Shown here in pieces: positions 16,411 to 25,426 of a DNA stretch of 64,000 nucleotides. A program made the translations under genes and the position numbers. The notes beneath the pieces were generated by a model. The model did not search any database. It had not been told where the DNA came from and saw nothing but the letters and a program-made list of their open reading frames with translations. Source of the DNA: an uncultured Candidatus Saccharibacteria bacterium. Lineage in GTDB: Bacteria > Patescibacteriota > Saccharimonadia > Saccharimonadales > Saccharimonadaceae. Where the stretch lies: assembly GCA_964581595.1 (NCBI GenBank), contig CAZOPB010000004.1, forward strand, positions 12,018 to 76,017, in the 5' to 3' direction. The stretch's first letter is position 1. Each line of letters opens with the position of its first letter.

Positions 16411-16495
16411 GCCCGAGTGGTGAAATTGGTATACACGTATGCCTTAGGAGCATATGCCGCAAGGTGTGCTGGTTCAAGTCCAGTCTCGGGCACCA
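16411..16495 (+). tRNA. tRNA-Leu, anticodon UAG, class II (long variable arm), CCA encoded
   Basis: Hand-folded cloverleaf: acceptor GCCCGAG/CTCGGGC, anticodon stem TATGC/GCATA with loop CTTAGGA, variable arm TGCCGCAAGGTGT, T arm GCTGG-TTCAAGT-CCAGT, then ACCA. Confidence 0.9.
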
Positions 16496-16889
16496 GAGGA
16501 AAAATAGTCCCGTCAGGGGCTGTTTTTACTCTGGTGCGTAACTTGAATTAGGCGTGAAGGACGCGTAGCGCCTGTGCTGGGTCTAGGCAGCAGGAAGTGA
16601 GTGAGGAAAAATATTGATATTTTTCCTCCGAACTGACGCCCTGCCGCTGAGCAAATCTTTGATTTGCGAAGTTGTCCAGTCTCGGGCGCCATCTCCTAGA
16701 GAAAACCATTTGGTTTTCGCTGGGCGATGTTTTTTGTTTCAAGAGACTGGGTTGAACCGCTAGTCGCCAGACTAGTGGTTCACCGGCGATGGGAGACGAG
16801 AGAAGAATAGATATATTTTATTCTTTCGAGGCGACGCCCCGACGAATTGGTGTTCGTAAGAAAAAACCAAGTTCCAGTCTCGGGCACCA
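16496..16889 (+). repeat. two tandem units of about 197 bp, each ending in a copy of the tRNA-Leu 3' end
   Basis: GTCCAGTCTCGGGCACCA in the tRNA (16478-16495) recurs as GTCCAGTCTCGGGCGCCA (16674-16691) and TCCAGTCTCGGGCACCA (16873-16889). The unit bodies are diverged but collinear: a hairpin after the previous copy, a GC-rich hairpin, an AT-rich hairpin, then GACGCC. Confidence 0.8.
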
Positions 16890-17178
16890 AGCAATACGAG
16901 AGTTGATTTCAGCCAACTCAGCAAAAGGCCCCAACAGATGAAAGTTGAGTCTTTTTTGTTGAATTTTGAGGTTCGAAACCATCAATCTCAAAATTTCTTT
17001 TGTATTACTTTTATAAACGCATACAGAATGAGCAAAATACTTAATAATACGATATATACATATAAATAAATTTAAGCCTAAAAGAGAATTAAACCTGAAT
17101 TAATTTTCTTGTCTAGAAGAATAAAGGATACATATACATATATTTCTAGTGTTAAATCAAATTTATTATTAAACGTTT

Positions 17179-19098
17179 TTATTTTTTATTGTTACTGCTC
17201 GACGGTAATAAATATTGAGCTAAAATCTCTTCTTTTTCTTCCTCGATTTTTTGAATAAGCTCTCTTATCTCTTCGACTCGTTTTTTACATTTATTGATTT
17301 TTTCTACTATATTGCGCTGAACATCAATCGGTGGTAGTGGTATTTTTATCAGTGATAAGTCATCAAATTTAAGCTGCGTGCGAACTCCGCCACCCGCGAG
17401 TCTATTAATTTCTTTATTAATAGCTCGTGTCTTTAGTATGATAAGTAAATACTCTGGATCAATTTTGTTCTCGTCGCAAGAAAACACTACATACATTGGG
17501 CTCACGCAACCTACTTTCGATGCGGTATTTAGAGCAATTGAGCCAACATTGATACGCGATGGATTATATGCAAAAAAGTTCTTCTTTATAACTTTATAAT
17601 TGCTTGTATCGTCAGACGCAACTTTGTGCGCAAAGTGCTTCTCCGGAAGTACAAACCCCTCCTTGTTTGAAACACTCCAGACTGGGATATCCGCATTTTT
17701 CACTCTTTCCTTTTCTTGCATTAATAGGTTTCCTAGCTCTTCCGTGAAATAGTCTGTCTGAATCTCATCCTGTTGTGATACATAGCGCCTCCCAGTGAGG
17801 ATATGGTGCTTATTTGCGAATATCGCTTTTTTATTCACAAAAAAGGCAAACTCACTGTCTAAATTGAGCGACTTATTGGATTGATATGCTTTAATAAGTT
17901 CTACTGCTCTTGGTATTTGACTACCTGGTATATCAGCTTGCGTCGCAGATAGAGTACGCCCGACATTTTCTATGTTGATAAAAAGTATGCCGTCTTGTTT
18001 TTTAGCTTTTGCTTTATCGAGCAGCAAAATATCAGTCTTAACATCGGCATACGGCAAGAATACGCCTTTAGGCAAACTAATTATGGAATACAAACTTTCA
18101 TTTAGAAGATTCTTTCTTAGTTCTGACAATGCTGAGTTATTTTTATTTGATGAAATGCCGTCGGGCACAATAATTGCAGCTCTTCCGGATGGTTTAAGGT
18201 GAGTAGATATATAATCTACGAAAAGAATTTCAGCTCTACTTGCCTGGATACTGAATTTTTTATGTGGATTGATCCCGCCTTTTGGCGTCATGAATGGCGG
18301 GTTAGCTAACACGACATCATACCGATCATCCCAATAGTCTTCTGAACTGAGAGTGTCATGTTCAATAATATTCGGCGACTTAAAACCGTGCAAGAACATG
18401 TTCACGCGAGCAATACGAGTCATATTTGGTTCAATATCAAATCCATAAAAATTATGATGGATCTTTTCCACCTCTTCGCTAGTTAGCCGATTATTTTTAC
18501 CATATTTCTTCATTAGGTGCCTGTAAGCCGAAATTAAAAAGCCAGCCGTACCACAAGCTGGATCTAGAATCTTATCAGTTTTATCCGGATCGATTAGTTC
18601 GACCATGAAATCAATAATGTGCCGTGGGGTACGAAATTGACCAAGGTCGCCCTGAGATCCCATAGTAGACAATAAGTACTCATAGGCATCGCCAATCGAG
18701 TCACCAGAATCGTGTTTGATTTTATCAATTTCACTGAGGAAGAGATTTAGGGTATTCGGATCGTTGAAGTTCAAGGTCGCGCCATTAAATATTTCTCGGA
18801 AAAGTGGAGGTAGATTAGGGTTACGACTCATATTCTCCAGTGCGCTACGGTATAGGGTTACGCGGTCATGACCAGTTACAGATGGACTCATGAGTTCGTG
18901 CCAGCCGTATTTTTCGTATTCTCCGGTGAAATATACCCGCTTACCGCCCAACGACACCGATTCGTCATCATTGTCGGACATAAACTTATAAATTAACGCG
19001 TAAGAGATCGCATCCACTTGCGCAACTGGGCTAGGCAATTTCCCGACTAAGACTGCCCTGGCATTGTCAATAATTTGCTTAAATTGCTTATAGTCCAT
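17179..19098 (-). CDS. hsdM: Type I R-M methyltransferase fused to a single-TRD (half) specificity subunit
   Basis: The gamma N6A MTase motifs are FRTPRHI, LDPACGTAGFL and VVLANPPFM. The C-terminal roughly 190 aa (about 17179-17740) look like one HsdS target-recognition domain plus a conserved helix (PPIDVQRNIVEKINKCKKRVEEIRELIQKIEEEKEEIL). No separate hsdS gene is present. Confidence 0.8.
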   Translation of the reverse strand: MDYKQFKQIIDNARAVLVGKLPSPVAQVDAISYALIYKFMSDNDDESVSLGGKRVYFTGEYEKYGWHELMSPSVTGHDRVTLYRSALENMSRNPNLPPLFREIFNGATLNFNDPNTLNLFLSEIDKIKHDSGDSIGDAYEYLLSTMGSQGDLGQFRTPRHIIDFMVELIDPDKTDKILDPACGTAGFLISAYRHLMKKYGKNNRLTSEEVEKIHHNFYGFDIEPNMTRIARVNMFLHGFKSPNIIEHDTLSSEDYWDDRYDVVLANPPFMTPKGGINPHKKFSIQASRAEILFVDYISTHLKPSGRAAIIVPDGISSNKNNSALSELRKNLLNESLYSIISLPKGVFLPYADVKTDILLLDKAKAKKQDGILFINIENVGRTLSATQADIPGSQIPRAVELIKAYQSNKSLNLDSEFAFFVNKKAIFANKHHILTGRRYVSQQDEIQTDYFTEELGNLLMQEKERVKNADIPVWSVSNKEGFVLPEKHFAHKVASDDTSNYKVIKKNFFAYNPSRINVGSIALNTASKVGCVSPMYVVFSCDENKIDPEYLLIILKTRAINKEINRLAGGGVRTQLKFDDLSLIKIPLPPIDVQRNIVEKINKCKKRVEEIRELIQKIEEEKEEILAQYLLPSSSNNKK

Positions 19099-19099
19099 T

Positions 19100-21643
19100 T
19101 TAATCCTTTACTCTTAGCTTATTTACGTTAATATAGTCTTTGATATAATTTACAATTTGGTTTACGCGATCTATCCCAAGTTCCTTTAACTGTCTCATAG
19201 AGATAGAACCAAAGCCAGATAATTCACCATACCGTTTATCATCGATTGCATCCGCTACTCTTCGGTCAGTAATATAAGCATCGAAGAGTTCGAAGGCATC
19301 ATTATATGACTGGCTAACTAGCTCATTCCCAAATTGCTTATCATTTACAAACTCGTCAAATCTAGCCTTTATATATTCAGCCTTAGTTAATGGTTCTTTA
19401 TTACTCATAATCAGATCTAAAATTTCCCGCAAATCCAGCCGCCGATCGAGCCCGAAAATCTTACGAATCTTCTCTGGAGTCATATAGAATTTAGGTTTAT
19501 CTTCTCCGAGAATATGATTTTTTAGGTAATTGAGTGACGCTTCAATATCACCGCGGTTATAGATACTCATGAATTCATCGTTAGATTTAACTTCGTCCTG
19601 AAAGCTACGAAACATCTCTCGGTCGATGCGCATACCGTCTTTCGTAACCACAGTTTCATCAACTTTTTTAAGGCTGTCAGACTCTGCTAAATCATATGGC
19701 ATTTCAATACCAACCGAAGGATTTGGATAATTTGTCGGAGGTAATGGTATAGTTCCTATGGTCGCCTCTTTCGCTCTCGGCACAACAAGCGGAGCATCAT
19801 AATCGTATTTTTCTTCGAAGTATTCACAGACGGCGAAAAAGTCAATTATATTAAAACTCTCTTTCTTAATCGTGATAAGACTTTCCTCATTAGAGTAATC
19901 AATCCATCTGAAGGTATGCATGCGCGTACCGCGCCCCTTCATTTGAATAAAATCCGACGGACTAAACACTGGTCGCATAAAGACTACGTTTTGCAAATCG
20001 GCGCAATCATATCCCGTCGTCATCATACCGACCGTTACCGCCACTCTAGCCTTACTGCTATCATAATCTGGCAACCAGCTAGTCTGGCCTCGGAGTTTAT
20101 TTTCGGAAAATTGGATTGTGTAATCCTGAGAATGCATAACGTTGCTCGTAATTTGTACGGCAAAATCCGAATTATATTTTCCGGGGAATTGCTCCATAGC
20201 CAATTTGTTTAAAATTTGGGTAATCCTCTCAGCATGTTTCTGACCAACAGTAAAGATGATGGACTTGCCGATTTCTCCGCTAATCGGATCCTTAGCAGCA
20301 TAACGCATAAAGGTCTCACATAGCACCCAGTTAGTTTCGTCATTAAAGAAGTTTTTTTCAAAGTCTCTAATACCGAAGCGTTCATCAATCTCAGAGCCAT
20401 CATCCTGTACTCGATGTACCGCATATCCTTGATCGTCCAGTAATTGAGAAGTAATATTCGTGCGAGCATCGTAGATAATTGGATTGACTAAGAAAGGTCC
20501 ATCCGGATCATTAACGCCGCTCTTTAAGTCATATCGGAAGGTGGGTTGTCCAGACTCACAGCCGAAAGTTCTGTATGTATCGAGCAATTCGCGGCACTCA
20601 AACTCGCGCTCACTATTCTCACTTTGCGTAGTGTTTTTTAAGAAGTCTTTCGGAGTAGCAGTAAGGCCGATCTTATATCCGTTAAAATACTCGAAGACCG
20701 CTCGAGCATTACCGCCAATCGAGCGGTGAGCTTCATCAGAGATAATCAAGTCAAAATCGCTTGGGCTAAAGCTACGATATCTATCCGAAGCAAGTAGCGA
20801 TTGCACCGTGCTCACCACAATGTGAGCGGTTTTCCAATTGTCTTTATCCTCTTTATAGGCTTTTACTATATAGTCGGATCCGATAGCTTGCGTAAAAGCC
20901 TTTTTGGCCTGATTTTCCAGTTCAATACGGTCCACTAAGAATAATACTCGTCGGGCATTGCCGGTTTTTAGGAAGAGCTTGATTATTGCGGCGCAAGTTA
21001 GGGTCTTGCCGGTACCGGTAGCCATTTCCAAAAGAAAGCGCTTCTTACCATTCTTTGCTGCTTTCTGAACCTTTCGGATTGCTTCAACCTGATACTTGCG
21101 AAGGATTTTTAGCTTATGTTTCTCAACAAAAGTTTTTCTTGCACTCTCGTTAATATAGTCGGGATGCTCTCTGAGGGTTGGCATTTGCGACGTTGCAATA
21201 TAGGCATTATCTACGTTCTCGCCGATTAAAGCCTCAACATCTGGATGCCATTCTTTATTTTGTATAAGCAACTCAAGCGACGGAAAACTGCTTATTGGCT
21301 CTGGGCTGCCGAATTGCATATCCCAAAGATAATGCGTATTCCCATTGCTCAGAATAACATAACGGACATGTAGAGAGTTGGCATATTCGCGAGCTTGTTC
21401 CTTAGCAGAGAGCGGAGGAATATCCTCGCGTTTAGCCTCTAATACTGCTATAGGTTTTTGATTTTCGTCTAACAAGAGATAGTCTACGAAACCATTTTTA
21501 GTATTCTCAAAATCATCGCCAAGATTAACTTTATTTTCCACGTCAACGGTCGCCGGACCGTTATCGTCAGCCAGCAGACGCCACCCAGAATCCTCTAGCA
21601 TTCTGTTTATTTTTAATCTTGCTTTTGCTTCCTTAACGCCCAT
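19100..21643 (-). CDS. hsdR: Type I restriction enzyme R subunit
   Basis: The N-terminal PD-(D/E)xK region reads FVDYLLLDENQKPIAVLEAKRE. The SF2 motor motifs are EMATGTGKT, IISDEAHRS and QMKGRGTR. Its stop lies 1 nt before the hsdM-S start. Confidence 0.85.
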   Translation of the reverse strand: MGVKEAKARLKINRMLEDSGWRLLADDNGPATVDVENKVNLGDDFENTKNGFVDYLLLDENQKPIAVLEAKREDIPPLSAKEQAREYANSLHVRYVILSNGNTHYLWDMQFGSPEPISSFPSLELLIQNKEWHPDVEALIGENVDNAYIATSQMPTLREHPDYINESARKTFVEKHKLKILRKYQVEAIRKVQKAAKNGKKRFLLEMATGTGKTLTCAAIIKLFLKTGNARRVLFLVDRIELENQAKKAFTQAIGSDYIVKAYKEDKDNWKTAHIVVSTVQSLLASDRYRSFSPSDFDLIISDEAHRSIGGNARAVFEYFNGYKIGLTATPKDFLKNTTQSENSEREFECRELLDTYRTFGCESGQPTFRYDLKSGVNDPDGPFLVNPIIYDARTNITSQLLDDQGYAVHRVQDDGSEIDERFGIRDFEKNFFNDETNWVLCETFMRYAAKDPISGEIGKSIIFTVGQKHAERITQILNKLAMEQFPGKYNSDFAVQITSNVMHSQDYTIQFSENKLRGQTSWLPDYDSSKARVAVTVGMMTTGYDCADLQNVVFMRPVFSPSDFIQMKGRGTRMHTFRWIDYSNEESLITIKKESFNIIDFFAVCEYFEEKYDYDAPLVVPRAKEATIGTIPLPPTNYPNPSVGIEMPYDLAESDSLKKVDETVVTKDGMRIDREMFRSFQDEVKSNDEFMSIYNRGDIEASLNYLKNHILGEDKPKFYMTPEKIRKIFGLDRRLDLREILDLIMSNKEPLTKAEYIKARFDEFVNDKQFGNELVSQSYNDAFELFDAYITDRRVADAIDDKRYGELSGFGSISMRQLKELGIDRVNQIVNYIKDYINVNKLRVKD

Positions 21644-21682
21644 TTACAATAACTCACTATGTTGCTATACATTATACCAAAC

Positions 21683-21718
21683 TTTTGTCACAAAATCCAC
21701 CTCTTTTTTGTGACAAAA
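21683..21718. promoter_or_regulatory. inverted pair of 13-nt palindromic boxes in the hsdR/abiEi divergent promoter region (candidate AbiEi operator)
   Basis: The boxes are TTTTGTCACAAAA (21683-21695) and TTTTGTGACAAAA (21706-21718), centres 23 bp apart. The second box covers the abiEi -35 (GTGACA 21710-21715, 17 nt before TATAAT 21733-21738). Confidence 0.6.
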
Positions 21719-21746
21719 TGCCTTCTCTAATGTATAATGGTAATAT

Positions 21747-22346
21747 ATGAGTGATCATGAACAAATTGAAATTAAAATCTTGGAAATGCCGTCGGGTAGT
21801 GTTTTTGTTGCTTCTGATTTTATCGATTTAGCTTCTTATGATAATATTCGACAGATTTTTTCGCGCCTTGAAACCGAAGGCAAAATTCGCCGTATTCTCC
21901 CTGGTATTTACGACAGACCAATTTACAGTAATATCCTTAAACAAAAAGTATCACCAGATGTTAATGCCGTCGCAGAAGCAATTGCCCGTAAAAATAATTG
22001 GTTTATTGTCCCTAGCGGCAATGTCGCGTTGAATTTATTAGGAATCTCTACGCAAGTTCCCGCTAAATGGGAGTATTTTAGTAGTGGCGACACTAAGGAT
22101 TACCAAGTTGGCAATATATCTATTAGTTTTATCCGTCGTGCTAATAAAGAGCTAAATCGAATGTCGACAAAGACCGCGCTCGTTATCCAGGCCATTAAAG
22201 CGCTTGGGGAAGAGAATATTTCTGAAGAGATCATAACTAAGCTTTCTGACAAATTAAGCAATGCGGAAAAAGCTCAACTACTTACAGAGGCAAAGCCGAC
22301 TACGGCTTGGATCTATGAAGTAATTAAGAAAATTTGTAAAGCATAA
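21747..22346 (+). CDS. abiEi: AbiEi-type antitoxin / transcriptional regulator (type IV TA)
   Basis: The N-terminal wHTH-like region (FVASDFIDLASYDNIRQIFSRLETEGKIRRILPGIYDRP) and its position directly upstream of an AbiEii gene (1-nt gap) support the call. Confidence 0.75.
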   Translation: MSDHEQIEIKILEMPSGSVFVASDFIDLASYDNIRQIFSRLETEGKIRRILPGIYDRPIYSNILKQKVSPDVNAVAEAIARKNNWFIVPSGNVALNLLGISTQVPAKWEYFSSGDTKDYQVGNISISFIRRANKELNRMSTKTALVIQAIKALGEENISEEIITKLSDKLSNAEKAQLLTEAKPTTAWIYEVIKKICKA

Positions 22347-22347
22347 A

Positions 22348-23352
22348 ATGTACGATTTGGCCAACCTTCCGAAAGCTGAGCTTGATGCTTTACTGCAAGA
22401 AGTTTCTAATGTCAAAAGTCTTAGCAAGGCAATCATTGAGAAGGATCTTTGGGTTTGTACCATCCTGGATTATATTTTTACGAAAAGCCCATGGAAAGAT
22501 AATTTCGCTTTTAAGGGCGGTACTAGTCTTTCTAAGGCCTATAATTTGATCGAGCATTTTTCCGAAGATATCGATTTAATTCTGGATTGGCGGGTGCTTG
22601 GTTACGATAAAACCGAGCCACTAGGAGAGCGCTCAACAAACCAGCAAGATAAACTCAACAAAGAGGTCCTTGCTAGGACATTGGATTTTTTGCAGACGAC
22701 ATTCATTCCAAAGATCACGGCGGACTTATCAAAACTAATTAATCGATATTTACAAATTATTTTTGAAGACAATGCTGTTGTCATTAGCTACGGTAATGAC
22801 TATGCCGACGAATCTATTTTGCATGCTATTCGTCTAGAAATCGGCGCATTAGCCGCCTGGACGCCAACTCAAATCGCAACAATCCGCCCATATATTGCTG
22901 AGACTTATCCGGAACATTTTAGGAATGCGTTTGTTGATGTTCGCACTACTACGCCAGAGCGTACTTTCTGGGAGAAGATTACGATTTTACATCGTGAGGC
23001 CTTCCGTCCGGAAGGTTCACTTCTGCCTCCTCGGATGTCGCGGCATTATTACGACACCTATCGCATGACAAAGCTTGGCATATTGGATCGAGCTTTGCAA
23101 AATTCAAGTCTGCTAAATCAAGTTACTGATTTTAAAGCCAAATTTTACCCACAAAAGTGGGCACACTACGAACTAGCCAAACTCGGCACTATTCGACTTA
23201 CTCCGCCGGAACATAGTCTTAGATTGCTTCAGCGTGACTATGCTGTTATGGCTGGGATGATTTATGGTAAAAGACCAGGATTCAACGAATTGATGGCGGA
23301 AATCGCTGGAATCGAGTATAAAATACAGCATGATCAAAACATAATAAGATAA
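22348..23352 (+). CDS. abiEii: AbiEii/AbiGii nucleotidyltransferase toxin (DUF1814)
   Basis: It has the FKGGTSLSKAY...FSEDIDL NTase signature. Its length and pairing with abiEi also fit. Confidence 0.8.
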   Translation: MYDLANLPKAELDALLQEVSNVKSLSKAIIEKDLWVCTILDYIFTKSPWKDNFAFKGGTSLSKAYNLIEHFSEDIDLILDWRVLGYDKTEPLGERSTNQQDKLNKEVLARTLDFLQTTFIPKITADLSKLINRYLQIIFEDNAVVISYGNDYADESILHAIRLEIGALAAWTPTQIATIRPYIAETYPEHFRNAFVDVRTTTPERTFWEKITILHREAFRPEGSLLPPRMSRHYYDTYRMTKLGILDRALQNSSLLNQVTDFKAKFYPQKWAHYELAKLGTIRLTPPEHSLRLLQRDYAVMAGMIYGKRPGFNELMAEIAGIEYKIQHDQNIIR

Positions 23353-23365
23353 TGAAGGAAGAATA

Positions 23366-24823
23366 ATGTATATTTCAAAAGTCAAATTACATAATTTTAG
23401 GGGATTTAAGAGTGATCATGAATTTACATTCAAAGATGGGGTTAATTTTTTAGTAGGCAATAACAATTGCGGGAAAACGTCACTTTTTAGAGCCGTAGAA
23501 TTTATACAATCAGGTAAGGAAATTAACCCGTACATTACAAAAGGTCTGGATGCTGAAGAATTCGTCTCGGTTGAAATGGAGCTAGCCGGAGAAGATCTGG
23601 AAAGTTTTATCAATTCAGCTGAAGGTCTTAGCAAATATAAACAGTACATTATCGAAGACAATGGATTAAAGGTGCTCAAGATTGCAAGAAGCAGCGAAGA
23701 AACTGAAATCACCCAGAACAAGAAGCCCAAGACTCTCACTATTAAAAATGTGCGTGTTTTTAACCAAAAAACTAATCAGTACGAAAATCCCGTCGGGATA
23801 GATAACACCATTGGCGCACTGTTTGAAACGCAATTTGTGTGGGCAGATATTAATATAGAAGATGTTGCCGACATCTCCAAAACCAAAATTTGCGGCAGAA
23901 TTATTAACAGTGTCATCAACAATAACAACAAAAGCTGGGAGGATTTTGCAAAAGCGCACGCTAAAGCATTTGGCGATATTCGAAATCAGTTGGAGCCAAT
24001 TGAGCAAACGCTTAAAAATAAGATGAGTGAACAATATGGTGACACTGAGATTAAGTTTAATTTCTCGTTACCAGAACTGTCGGATTTTTTAAAGTTTGGT
24101 ACAATCAATTTGTCAGATGATGGGATCCAAACAACTAGTTCGGAAAAAGGTACTGGGATGCAACGCGCACTCGCTCTAGCAATTATTCAAGTGTATGCCG
24201 AGATTGCGTCGAAAGTTGACGATAATATTGCAAAACCGCTTATATTCTTCCTTGATGAGCCAGAGACATTCTTGCATCCAGAAGCGCAGTCCCGTCTGCT
24301 AGAGGCTCTTGGTAAAATAGCGCAATCTTCGCAAATATTCATCGCCACACACTCACCATACCTGCTACGAAGTTTTAAAAGTGGCAATCATACATTATAC
24401 TCTTTCTCGAAACATCAAGGAGCAAATAGCGCAGAAGCCAGTACGGAGCTTAATCTGTTTGGCAAATCTAGTCCCACATGGGGAGAAATCAATTATAGAG
24501 CCTTCGGTGTAGTTTCTTACGAATTTCACGATGAACTTTATGGTTTCATCCAAGCGCACGCCATTAACGAAGATGAGAAGTACTATAAACCAAAAGACTT
24601 TGACCAATATTTGTGTCAAAAGAATCCTAATTTTATTATAAATAAGAAGTATAAGCATCTAAAATCCGACGGTAGTATTTCAGAATATGATACCACTATA
24701 GCAACATATATCCGTAATGTTATCCACCATCCAGAAAATCCCAATAATGCCAGATTCTCCACAGAGGATCTTGAGAAATCAATTAAGGATTTACTTTTAA
24801 TTATGGAAGATATTAGCAAATAA
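23366..24823 (+). CDS. OLD/RecF-like ABC ATPase (AAA_15/AAA_21 type) with an unassigned C-terminal domain of about 130 aa
   Basis: MYISKVKLHNFRGF, Walker A GNNNCGKTS, signature-like EKGTGMQRAL, Walker B IFFLDEPETFLHPE and H-loop IATHSP are present. I can see no TOPRIM, HNH or PD-ExK motif in the C-terminal part (about 24428-24823). It starts 13 nt after the abiEii stop, behind GAAGGAAG. Confidence 0.75.
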   Translation: MYISKVKLHNFRGFKSDHEFTFKDGVNFLVGNNNCGKTSLFRAVEFIQSGKEINPYITKGLDAEEFVSVEMELAGEDLESFINSAEGLSKYKQYIIEDNGLKVLKIARSSEETEITQNKKPKTLTIKNVRVFNQKTNQYENPVGIDNTIGALFETQFVWADINIEDVADISKTKICGRIINSVINNNNKSWEDFAKAHAKAFGDIRNQLEPIEQTLKNKMSEQYGDTEIKFNFSLPELSDFLKFGTINLSDDGIQTTSSEKGTGMQRALALAIIQVYAEIASKVDDNIAKPLIFFLDEPETFLHPEAQSRLLEALGKIAQSSQIFIATHSPYLLRSFKSGNHTLYSFSKHQGANSAEASTELNLFGKSSPTWGEINYRAFGVVSYEFHDELYGFIQAHAINEDEKYYKPKDFDQYLCQKNPNFIINKKYKHLKSDGSISEYDTTIATYIRNVIHHPENPNNARFSTEDLEKSIKDLLLIMEDISK

Positions 24824-24842
24824 TTTATATATCACCGCGCAA

Positions 24843-24880
24843 AAAGAGCCGCTTGCTTTGGATAGCCGCGGCTCTTTTTA
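24843..24880 (+). terminator. intrinsic terminator closing the abiE-ATPase unit
   Basis: AGAGCCGC (24845-24852) pairs with GCGGCTCT (24868-24875), followed by TTTTT. Confidence 0.75.
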
Positions 24881-25426
24881 TGCAAACCCGCGCTACGTTA
24901 TGTTGCCGGCCTACTAAAAATATTTTCAAAAATCATCATTTGTCCGCCTACTTTATGGGGAATTGGTAAGTAGTTAAAACATAAATTACTTTAAAAGTCC
25001 AAATATCTTCTGTAAGAGCGAGCTTACGCGTTAACGCGATAAATTAATCTCGTAAATAAGTCCTTACAAATTCTGCTAACGCCCGACCGTACAGTTTGTT
25101 ATAATTATAGTAGCCATTCGAAAATCGTCGTTTTTCGGACACCAAACGTTTCGTTAGAATTCACTATCTTGGCAGTTTTTCTCGTTCGTTGGTCCAATAG
25201 ACCCACTTCGCTCAAATAAACTACCAATCTGATTAATTCTATCCGAAACTTGAGCGTAATGAAATAGAAAAAACGAGACGCGCGGCGCTCAAAGAAAGCA
25301 CTAATTTAGGAATTCTGGTTATAGTTTATGTTTTTAGTTCCCATCGGGGAATGTTTTTATATTGAAACAGTGCTATGTCGTGTTTGCGCTCTGGACAAAC
25401 GTTTTGATTGCCGCTATACTTAGGTT

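Follow-up and report, generated by a model that had tools for sequence, protein, structure and literature searches.

An OLD-type ABC ATPase with an uncatalogued C-terminal domain, probably a portable defence module, behind an AbiE pair of an uncultured Saccharibacteria bacterium

PrrC, encoded by the prr locus of Escherichia coli within the type IC EcoprrI hsd operon, and RloC combine an N-terminal ABC ATPase with a small C-terminal RNase-type domain in one polypeptide, and their genes are nested in or appended to restriction-modification (R-M) operons; some of the neighbourhoods also contain Fic/DOC and RhuM genes. The literature already describes fusions of ABC ATPases to RNases whose genes are tied to those for R-M, Fic/DOC and RhuM; in the fusions of the ERFG_01251 and APECO1_4465 types, an ABC ATPase is followed by a C-terminal HEPN domain with an Rx4-6H motif in mobile defence contexts (PMC3710099). 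ABC ATPases of the OLD type are found in the OLD nucleases (P2 Old of Class 1 and GajA of Class 2), and OLD-like ABC sensors act in abortive defence in PARIS (AriA/AriB), AbiL and Septu (PtuA/PtuB), which are often embedded in other systems. OLD-type ABC proteins with alternative nucleases are also known (PMC12839542; a 2024 bioRxiv preprint on embedded defences). Here we describe a gene for an OLD-type ABC ATPase of 485 aa, which lies directly behind the abortive infection genes abiEi and abiEii in a stretch of 64,000 nucleotides, hereafter the window, from an uncultured Candidatus Saccharibacteria bacterium (contig CAZOPB010000004.1, positions 12,018 to 76,017 of the forward strand).

The window ATPase resembles PrrC and RloC in joining an N-terminal ABC ATPase to a small C-terminal domain that may be an RNase, and its relatives are likewise nested in or appended to R-M operons, with Fic and RhuM neighbours around some members of the family. 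It differs from them in that its head is of the OLD type and not of the AAA_13 type (PF13166 is unmatched in the protein, and no match to this model was found in the whole genome from which the window comes), in that the motif of its tail is R-N-x3-H whereas true AAA_13 proteins have R-x3-E...S-H, and in that the family is linked to R-M systems of types I, II, IIG and III, not just type IC, and to AbiE. The window also departs from the habitat of PrrC itself, as the R-M genes there are adjacent but divergent, with AbiE between. With the OLD nucleases, the ATPase shares the ABC architecture and a head whose closest profile match is Old, and with those of Class 1 the form of a single-gene module; however, it has no TOPRIM domain and carries an unrelated helical domain of 125 aa instead. 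From the ABC-HEPN fusions it would be set apart by the HEPN/TOPRIM-NTD1 domain described for ERFG_01251 proteins, which is not seen in the window ATPase, and by the fact that no Pfam HEPN model reaches the threshold on its tail. In PARIS, AbiL and Septu the nuclease is encoded by a partner gene of its own (TOPRIM/DUF4435 or HNH), whereas the candidate effector of the window family is fused to the ATPase. As regards AbiE, the first two genes of the window trio form the canonical pair with a putative inverted-repeat operator over the promoter, but the ATPase lies outside the architecture of the AbiE family. The ATPase family is described neither in the S. thermophilus defence-loci paper nor in the Hma-embedded defence preprint.

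On the evidence given below, we consider it probable that the ATPase is a portable single-gene defence module, independent of AbiE, which has docked behind the AbiE pair and may work by a PrrC-like mechanism.

Genomic linkage of the ATPase gene

On the + strand of the window, abiEi (21747-22346; 199 aa; antitoxin/repressor of the DUF6088 type; Pfam DUF6088, 6e-36; PADLOC AbiEi, 2e-64), abiEii (22348-23352; 334 aa; nucleotidyltransferase toxin; Pfam AbiEii PF08843, 1.5e-31; PADLOC AbiEii, 3e-94) and the ATPase gene (23366-24823; AAA_15, 3e-29; AAA_21, 4e-23; PADLOC Old, 3e-49, as the best match) follow one another with gaps of 1 nt and 13 nt. An earlier note, made from the letters of this DNA and a list of its open reading frames (ORFs), had reported these three ORFs and gaps and had named the products as AbiEi, AbiEii and an ABC ATPase; the coordinates were re-derived exactly, and the identities are upheld by the Pfam and PADLOC matches. 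The AbiE pair is canonical: the AbiEi gene is directly 5′ of the toxin gene, the nucleotidyltransferase (NTase) motifs GGTSL and EDIDL can be read in the AbiEii translation, and there is an inverted repeat in the promoter. The earlier note had offered two readings of the third gene, either as part of a three-component AbiE variant or as a new defence made of this ATPase gene alone, with a novel domain as its effector or sensor.

Genes were called around the ATPase gene in 79 loci, and the Pfam families of the neighbours were tallied. An R-M gene was found directly beside the ATPase gene in at least 42 of these loci, with types I, II, IIG and III all represented. AbiE was found beside it in two loci only, L001 and L002, and the ATPases of these share 94% and 89% identity, respectively, with that of the window. 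Among the 70 upstream neighbours scanned, the families were ResIII (12), N6_Mtase (11), HsdM_N (7), Methylase_S (4), Fic (3) and AbiEii (2); among 69 downstream neighbours, Methylase_S occurred 14 times; and 128 second neighbours included HsdR-type domains (13), type III Mod (10-12), N6_Mtase (7), DpnII (3) and DUF6088 (2). With X standing for the ATPase, the order hsdM-X-hsdS-hsdR was seen in bacteria of the candidate phyla radiation (CPR) and in one gammaproteobacterium, a type III mod-res-X order in the Streptococcus mitis group and S. suis, and further forms were Dam-DpnII-methyltransferase-X and a fused methyltransferase-specificity (MS) gene followed by X. No recurrent TOPRIM or HNH partner gene appeared in the neighbour tallies, and the window ATPase gene itself is flanked by abiEii and a terminator. 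Of 45 loci that could be scored for this, 40 have a same-strand gene upstream of the ATPase gene, and in 28 that gene ends no more than 35 nt away; the ATPase gene is therefore habitually a downstream or embedded member of an operon. On plasmids it stands alone between insertion sequence (IS) elements (pLH1 and a Klebsiella IncFIB plasmid), and these copies are annotated merely as 'ATP-binding protein' or 'AAA family ATPase'.

Two groups of these loci were seen in detail. In the Streptococcus mitis group and S. suis (L027-L037, L045 and L059), a homologue of 493 aa with about 50% identity occupies the third place in a mod-res operon, and in seven of the streptococcal mod-res-ATPase loci the next gene is the housekeeping gene Tex. 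On the Klebsiella IncFIB plasmid (L197, NZ_MN310379.1, 4177-8847), a homologue with 29.5% identity and a retained RNHIHH motif is the sole gene between two ISNCY transposase genes in a composite-transposon-like arrangement, with a TIR-domain gene nearby.

Adjacency to AbiE was limited to ATPases at least 88% identical to that of the window. The abiEi-abiEii-ATPase trio was also present in L001 and in the P0003 contigs (89% identical; L110-L115), where it lies beside a divergent MmeI-type IIG enzyme and FtsX-like genes. By blastn, window positions 21666-25145 form one block of 3.5 kb with 77% nucleotide identity to the L110 and L002 loci, with unrelated flanks. Thus the trio is a real 3.5-kb unit of a narrow lineage, found in at least two genomic contexts. 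In P0007 (L104), whose ATPase is 69% identical and whose genome is syntenic with the window (RecG, tRNA and P-type ATPase genes), AbiE is absent, and the ATPase gene lies 9 nt behind a Dam-DpnII-N6_N4 methylase operon. Homology of L104 to the window begins at 23352, at the stop codon of abiEii and the Shine-Dalgarno sequence of the ATPase gene, and runs through the terminator into the P-type ATPase gene; therefore the portable ATPase unit starts at its own ribosome-binding site.

The same picture was obtained from the side of AbiE. In 80 metagenomic relatives of AbiEii (40-81% identical), AbiEi was found upstream wherever sequence was available, and the ATPase was found downstream in none of the 80, the closest of which have 2-4 kb of downstream sequence. 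In L116, L118 and L122, whose AbiEii proteins are 78-81% identical, the match to the window covers 21669-23278 and 24831-25145 but not the ATPase gene. The three-component variant of the earlier note is thus not supported, in view of the presence of AbiE in only two of the 79 loci, its absence at 69% ATPase identity in a syntenic genome and the absence of the ATPase from the 80 AbiEii relatives. That note had also called for co-occurrence statistics, and had taken a lack of linkage among homologues to speak against the variant; linkage to AbiE was lacking in 77 of the 79 loci.

The slot that corresponds to window positions 23352-24830 holds variable cargo between abiEii and the right-hand segment in these relatives: an unannotated ORF of 233 aa in L116 (2498-3199), an unannotated ORF of 450 aa in L118 (4981-6333), and a PDC-M48A/B pair with a GmrSD_C-like protein in L122 (720-3021). 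The ORF-free segment to the right of the slot (24831-25145) has 75-77% nucleotide identity in L110, L116, L118 and L122, whatever the cargo. It opens with an invariant terminator hairpin and has further hairpins inside; a search for structured RNA gave no Rfam match and almost no covariation. The segment may mark a border, serve in recombination or encode a small RNA.

The ATPase has more than 865 relatives (clusters at 90% identity, E ≤ 1e-3) with a uniform length of about 480-490 aa, and about 55% identity is retained among Saccharibacteria, other CPR phyla, Endomicrobium and others. A genome scan also found the family in Streptococcus, Gardnerella, Bifidobacterium, many actinomycetes, Campylobacter, Moraxella and Acinetobacter, so that its range takes in CPR bacteria, oral streptococci, bifidobacteria, actinomycetes and proteobacteria. 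The gene was present in four of 151 genomes of the window's taxonomic family and in none of the three other genomes of its genus, a distribution that is the mark of a horizontally mobile accessory gene. No phage-borne copy was found in 50,697 phage records. One genome of the window's family (G356:C15:129915-131338) carries a broken homologue, 52-57% identical, whose head is interrupted by two TGA stops and one TAG stop and whose reading frame shifts ahead of the tail; this copy is decaying. These data favour the other reading of the earlier note, that of one ATPase gene which provides defence through a novel effector or sensor domain: the family has many members of uniform length with a sporadic distribution, it docks in operons of several R-M types, its plasmid copies stand alone and its tail is uncatalogued.

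The head and the C-terminal domain of the ATPase

The OLD-type ABC head comprises residues 1-352 (23366-24421), to which the three profile matches of the protein belong. The Old profile is covered at positions 2-347 of 578 only. The motifs given in the earlier note (GNNNCGKTS, EKGTGMQRAL, IFFLDEPE, ATHSP and IRNVIHHPENPNN) were all present in the translation; Walker A, signature, Walker B and H-loop are intact, and the core motif residues are invariant in an alignment of 35 homologues. Foldseek of a model of the full ATPase recovered Rad50, SMC, PtuA and OLD (6p74, 1.3e-7), all by their ABC heads only, and weak RecF, SMC_N and Rad50 profile matches were found at the N-terminus. Pfam describes AAA_21 (PF13304) as 'putative AbiEii toxin, Type IV TA system', which could mislead annotators into tying the ATPase to AbiE; this is a label only and no evidence of a functional link.

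The remainder of the protein is an uncatalogued, HEPN-like domain of about 125 aa (residues 359-485; 24440-24820), for which there is no Pfam family; neither it nor the full-length ATPase is covered by a model of Pfam, NCBIfam or PADLOC. A search with the tail only gave 493 clusters (50% identity level, E ≤ 1e-3), nearly all of them at the C-terminal end of proteins 450-530 aa long; shorter ones were fragments. When a profile of the tail was run against proteins of 70-220 aa to find the domain on its own, every hit was a fragment of this fusion and none bore a Pfam label for the tail. In 46 diverse tails P370, W372, G373, E374, N376, L391, R450, H455 and P456 are invariant and H388, E390 and N451 nearly so. 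The residues R450-N-V-I-H-H455 (codons at 24713-24730) form an R-N-x-x-x-H motif, that is, an Rx4H motif of the HEPN type with a polar N after the R, which is retained at 29-38% overall identity. H454 is replaced by D in some lineages (RNYIDH), with R450 and H455 persisting. In the streptococcal copies W372 is replaced by I (PTIGEINY) and the motif is retained as RNIIHH. With E, H, E, R, N and H kept, the invariant positions resemble a catalytic site more than an interface.

AlphaFold2 on the tail alignment gave a confident model (predicted local distance difference test 94.5; predicted template modelling score 0.88). It has a helix at 372-380, a second at 385-402 with H388 and E390, a third at 445-454 that ends with RNVIHH, a loop with PENxxN, and a last helix at 466-484; the insert at 404-443, with short helices and a β-hairpin, is poorly conserved. 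The layout is thus H1-H2-variable insert-H3-H4, with the motif where H3, the penultimate helix, runs out into the loop that leads to H4. In the predicted model this is the same position as that of the HEPN motif in PMC3710099. The profile search and structure prediction that the earlier note had asked for yielded a confident fold but identified no known nuclease or domain of unknown function. Its statement that the tail has no TOPRIM, HNH or PD-ExK motif agrees with our searches, as none of these was matched in Pfam, the PDB or Foldseek, and a profile search of PDB sequences with the tail was empty. Its term 'nuclease-less', on the other hand, is probably wrong, as it had overlooked the invariant HEPN-type Rx4H at the canonical position of the fold.

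Two other assignments were ruled out. An HNH/ββα-Me reading of the hairpin and helix fails because the hairpin residues are not conserved, and membership of PrrC/RloC is excluded by hhalign against the C-domains of eight true AAA_13 proteins, taken from Streptococcus genomes (probability 0.5%). We regard the tail as a probable HEPN-like RNase on the basis of its model and motif, not as a demonstrated member of the HEPN families and not as a PrrC/RloC-type domain.

Transcription signals and the surrounding island

The best-scoring promoter site of the region is of the sigma-70 type (GTGACA-17-TATAAT, 21710-21738, + strand, 11/12 matches) and ends 8 nt before the ATG of abiEi, which makes the gene nearly leaderless. 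A perfect 13-nt inverted repeat, TTTTGTCACAAAA / TTTTGTGACAAAA with a 10-nt spacer, was found by repeat search at 21683-21718; its arms occupy 21683-21695 and 21706-21718, and the second arm overlies the −35 hexamer. AbiEi autoregulates through an inverted-repeat operator, and the repeat is most likely such an operator, although this is an assignment by analogy with AbiE. AbiE loci keep it whether or not they have the ATPase, and its arms covary; because it is kept where the ATPase is missing, promoter and operator belong to AbiE. Covarying arms were read as GTCCC/GGGAC in L001 and as GTAACG/CGTTAC in L116 and L119. In relatives, the abiEi leader is about 8 nt longer and includes an AAGGA Shine-Dalgarno sequence, which is absent from window positions 21683-21747.

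The ATPase gene has a Shine-Dalgarno sequence, GAAGGAAG, at 23354-23361 (+ strand), and thus its own ribosome-binding site, but apparently no promoter. Downstream of it, an intrinsic terminator hairpin, AAAAAGAGCCGC ... GCGGCUCUUUUU, lies at 24841-24879 on the + strand (folding energy −26.6 kcal/mol, z score −2.5). It consists of a 12-bp GC-rich stem followed by a U-run and is invariant in five related loci; its long loop caused it to be missed by a simple terminator scan. One promoter 5′ and one terminator 3′ of the trio, as claimed before, were thus found, and in the lineage of the window the trio is probably one transcript.

The trio lies in a low-GC defence island of about 9 kb, which spans 16411-25426 between a tRNA-Leu gene and a P-type ATPase gene. 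The tRNA-Leu gene (16411-16495, + strand; ARAGORN) forms its left border, and the GC content is 0.38-0.41 inside (about 16.5-25.4 kb) versus about 0.49 outside. This tRNA is 98% identical to the tRNA beside a different island in the syntenic locus L104, which has at the same site Dam-DpnII-methyltransferase genes and the ATPase homologue, followed by NUDIX and hydrolase genes. This position in the genome is a hot spot of defence-gene exchange.

On the − strand of the island are HsdM-S, a type I-like methyltransferase fused to a single target recognition domain (17179-19098; 639 aa; N6_Mtase, 2e-55; Methylase_S, 9e-12; PADLOC MTase_I, 1.5e-91), and HsdR, a type I-like restriction subunit (19100-21643; 847 aa; HSDR_N_2, ResIII and Helicase_C; PADLOC REase_I, 7e-62). 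This R-M system is compact and divergent from the abiE operon. In L077 and L078, the R, MS and ATPase genes follow one another on a single strand, the ATPase gene 4 nt behind the MS gene, and the R-M proteins of the window are 48% (HsdR) and 37% (HsdM-S) identical to theirs. The window therefore holds the usual type of partner of the ATPase family, but on the opposite strand and with AbiE between.

Proposed mechanism, alternatives and meaning

We suggest that the island consists of independent modules: a type I-like R-M system on the − strand, a two-gene AbiE with an AbiEi-controlled promoter, and the single-gene ATPase. Apparently lacking a promoter, the ATPase gene would dock downstream of or embedded in other defence operons, mostly R-M operons, and here it would have docked 13 nt behind abiEii. 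It would probably be transcribed from the AbiEi-repressed promoter, and its dose would then follow AbiE derepression; we regard the shared transcript as a consequence of docking and not as evidence of a joint mechanism. The ABC head may serve as sensor and switch, as in PrrC and RloC. Once ATP drove two heads to dimerise, their tails would meet and form a composite, HEPN-like and metal-independent RNase site, which may cut tRNA or mRNA and abort the infection upon a phage cue. By analogy with PrrC, PARIS and OLD, candidate triggers are an anti-restriction protein or an aberrant DNA end. AbiE would act separately as a type IV toxin-antitoxin (TA) and abortive infection (Abi) system. ABC heads dimerise on ATP, and HEPN RNases are dimers with composite Rx4-6H sites; for these reasons the composite RNase is the most economical model.

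Several points weigh against this proposal. Foldseek of the tail model gave no significant match, with best E values of 0.35 in the PDB and 0.038 in BFVD. Pfam matches on the 46 tails were sub-threshold, HEPN_RiboL-PSP in five of the 46 (best E 0.026) and HEPN_Apea once, and hhalign against seven true RiboL-PSP HEPN proteins aligned RNxIHH and the last helix only, onto RNxIAH (E 0.016, probability 2.9%). The tail lacks the Ex3[KR] motif that many HEPN families typically have, and the HEPN assignment is not statistically supported. The R-M labels were spread from seed proteins and give a lower bound only, with neighbours unclassified in about 35 loci. The trio block adjoins a divergent R-M system in both of its contexts, of type I in the window and of the MmeI type in L110-L115, so that some functional interplay in this lineage is possible. 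Lastly, we infer the co-transcription, the ATPase activity and the RNase activity alike.

The failure of the tail to match any nuclease by fold or profile would be expected if it were a sensor or docking domain for a phage protein, a nucleic acid or a neighbouring complex, with the effector elsewhere, in the adjacent R-M system, in AbiEii or in ATP depletion. The habit of the ATPase gene of lying inside the operons of other systems would fit this as well, and the OLD-type ABC sensors of PARIS and Septu do use a separate effector. However, its partners (R-M of types I, II, IIG and III, AbiE, and none on plasmids) are too varied for one docking surface, the invariant residues look catalytic, the motif and its position fit HEPN, and no conserved partner nuclease gene was seen; we consider a sensor tail possible but unlikely. 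The tight spacing and the single promoter and terminator, together with the 3.5-kb block that is conserved between unrelated flanks in L110 and L002 and is also present in L001, would suit a true three-component AbiE, in which the ATPase senses infection or gates AbiEii, or AbiEii modifies the tail as MNT does HEPN toxins, and NTase-HEPN pairing is a known regulatory theme (PMC3710099; PMC4621449). Against this stand the restriction of the adjacency to the closest ATPases and its absence from 77 of the 79 loci and, at 69% identity, from the syntenic genome, the lack of the ATPase in all 80 AbiEii relatives with unrelated cargo in the slot of the sister loci, the solitary copies on plasmids, and the fact that AbiE is known as a two-gene system, so that we hold this explanation to be very unlikely.

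Only slightly less doubtful is that the ATPase is a universal 'guard' cassette, inserted promoter-less behind any defence operon, which would monitor the integrity of that system and would have been recruited to AbiE; there AbiEii and the HEPN-like tail would act on one another in the manner of MNT and HEPN, with nucleotidylation switching the RNase or with both attacking tRNA, in a three-gene circuit under AbiEi control. If this were true, the tail would be a new HEPN clade or a new RNase fold. The weak RecF, SMC_N and Rad50 matches of the N-terminus might also indicate a housekeeping DNA-repair ATPase of the RecF/SMC kind that is in the island by chance, but a gene with four occurrences in 151 related genomes, about 55% identity across unrelated phyla, a constant defence-island and R-M context, a place in a low-GC island and IS-flanked copies on plasmids hardly behaves in this way, and we give this explanation very little credit.

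If the ATPase is, as we propose, a portable module with an RNase tail, it would be a second, independently assembled case of the PrrC principle, an ATPase-gated suicide RNase that backs up restriction. Censuses of defence systems under-count this family, which is without a Pfam, NCBIfam or PADLOC model. The locus also cautions that tight operon spacing within a defence island is not equal to a multi-component system, and the docking of a promoter-less gene would provide a concrete and testable model of the way in which defence genes come to lie inside other systems.

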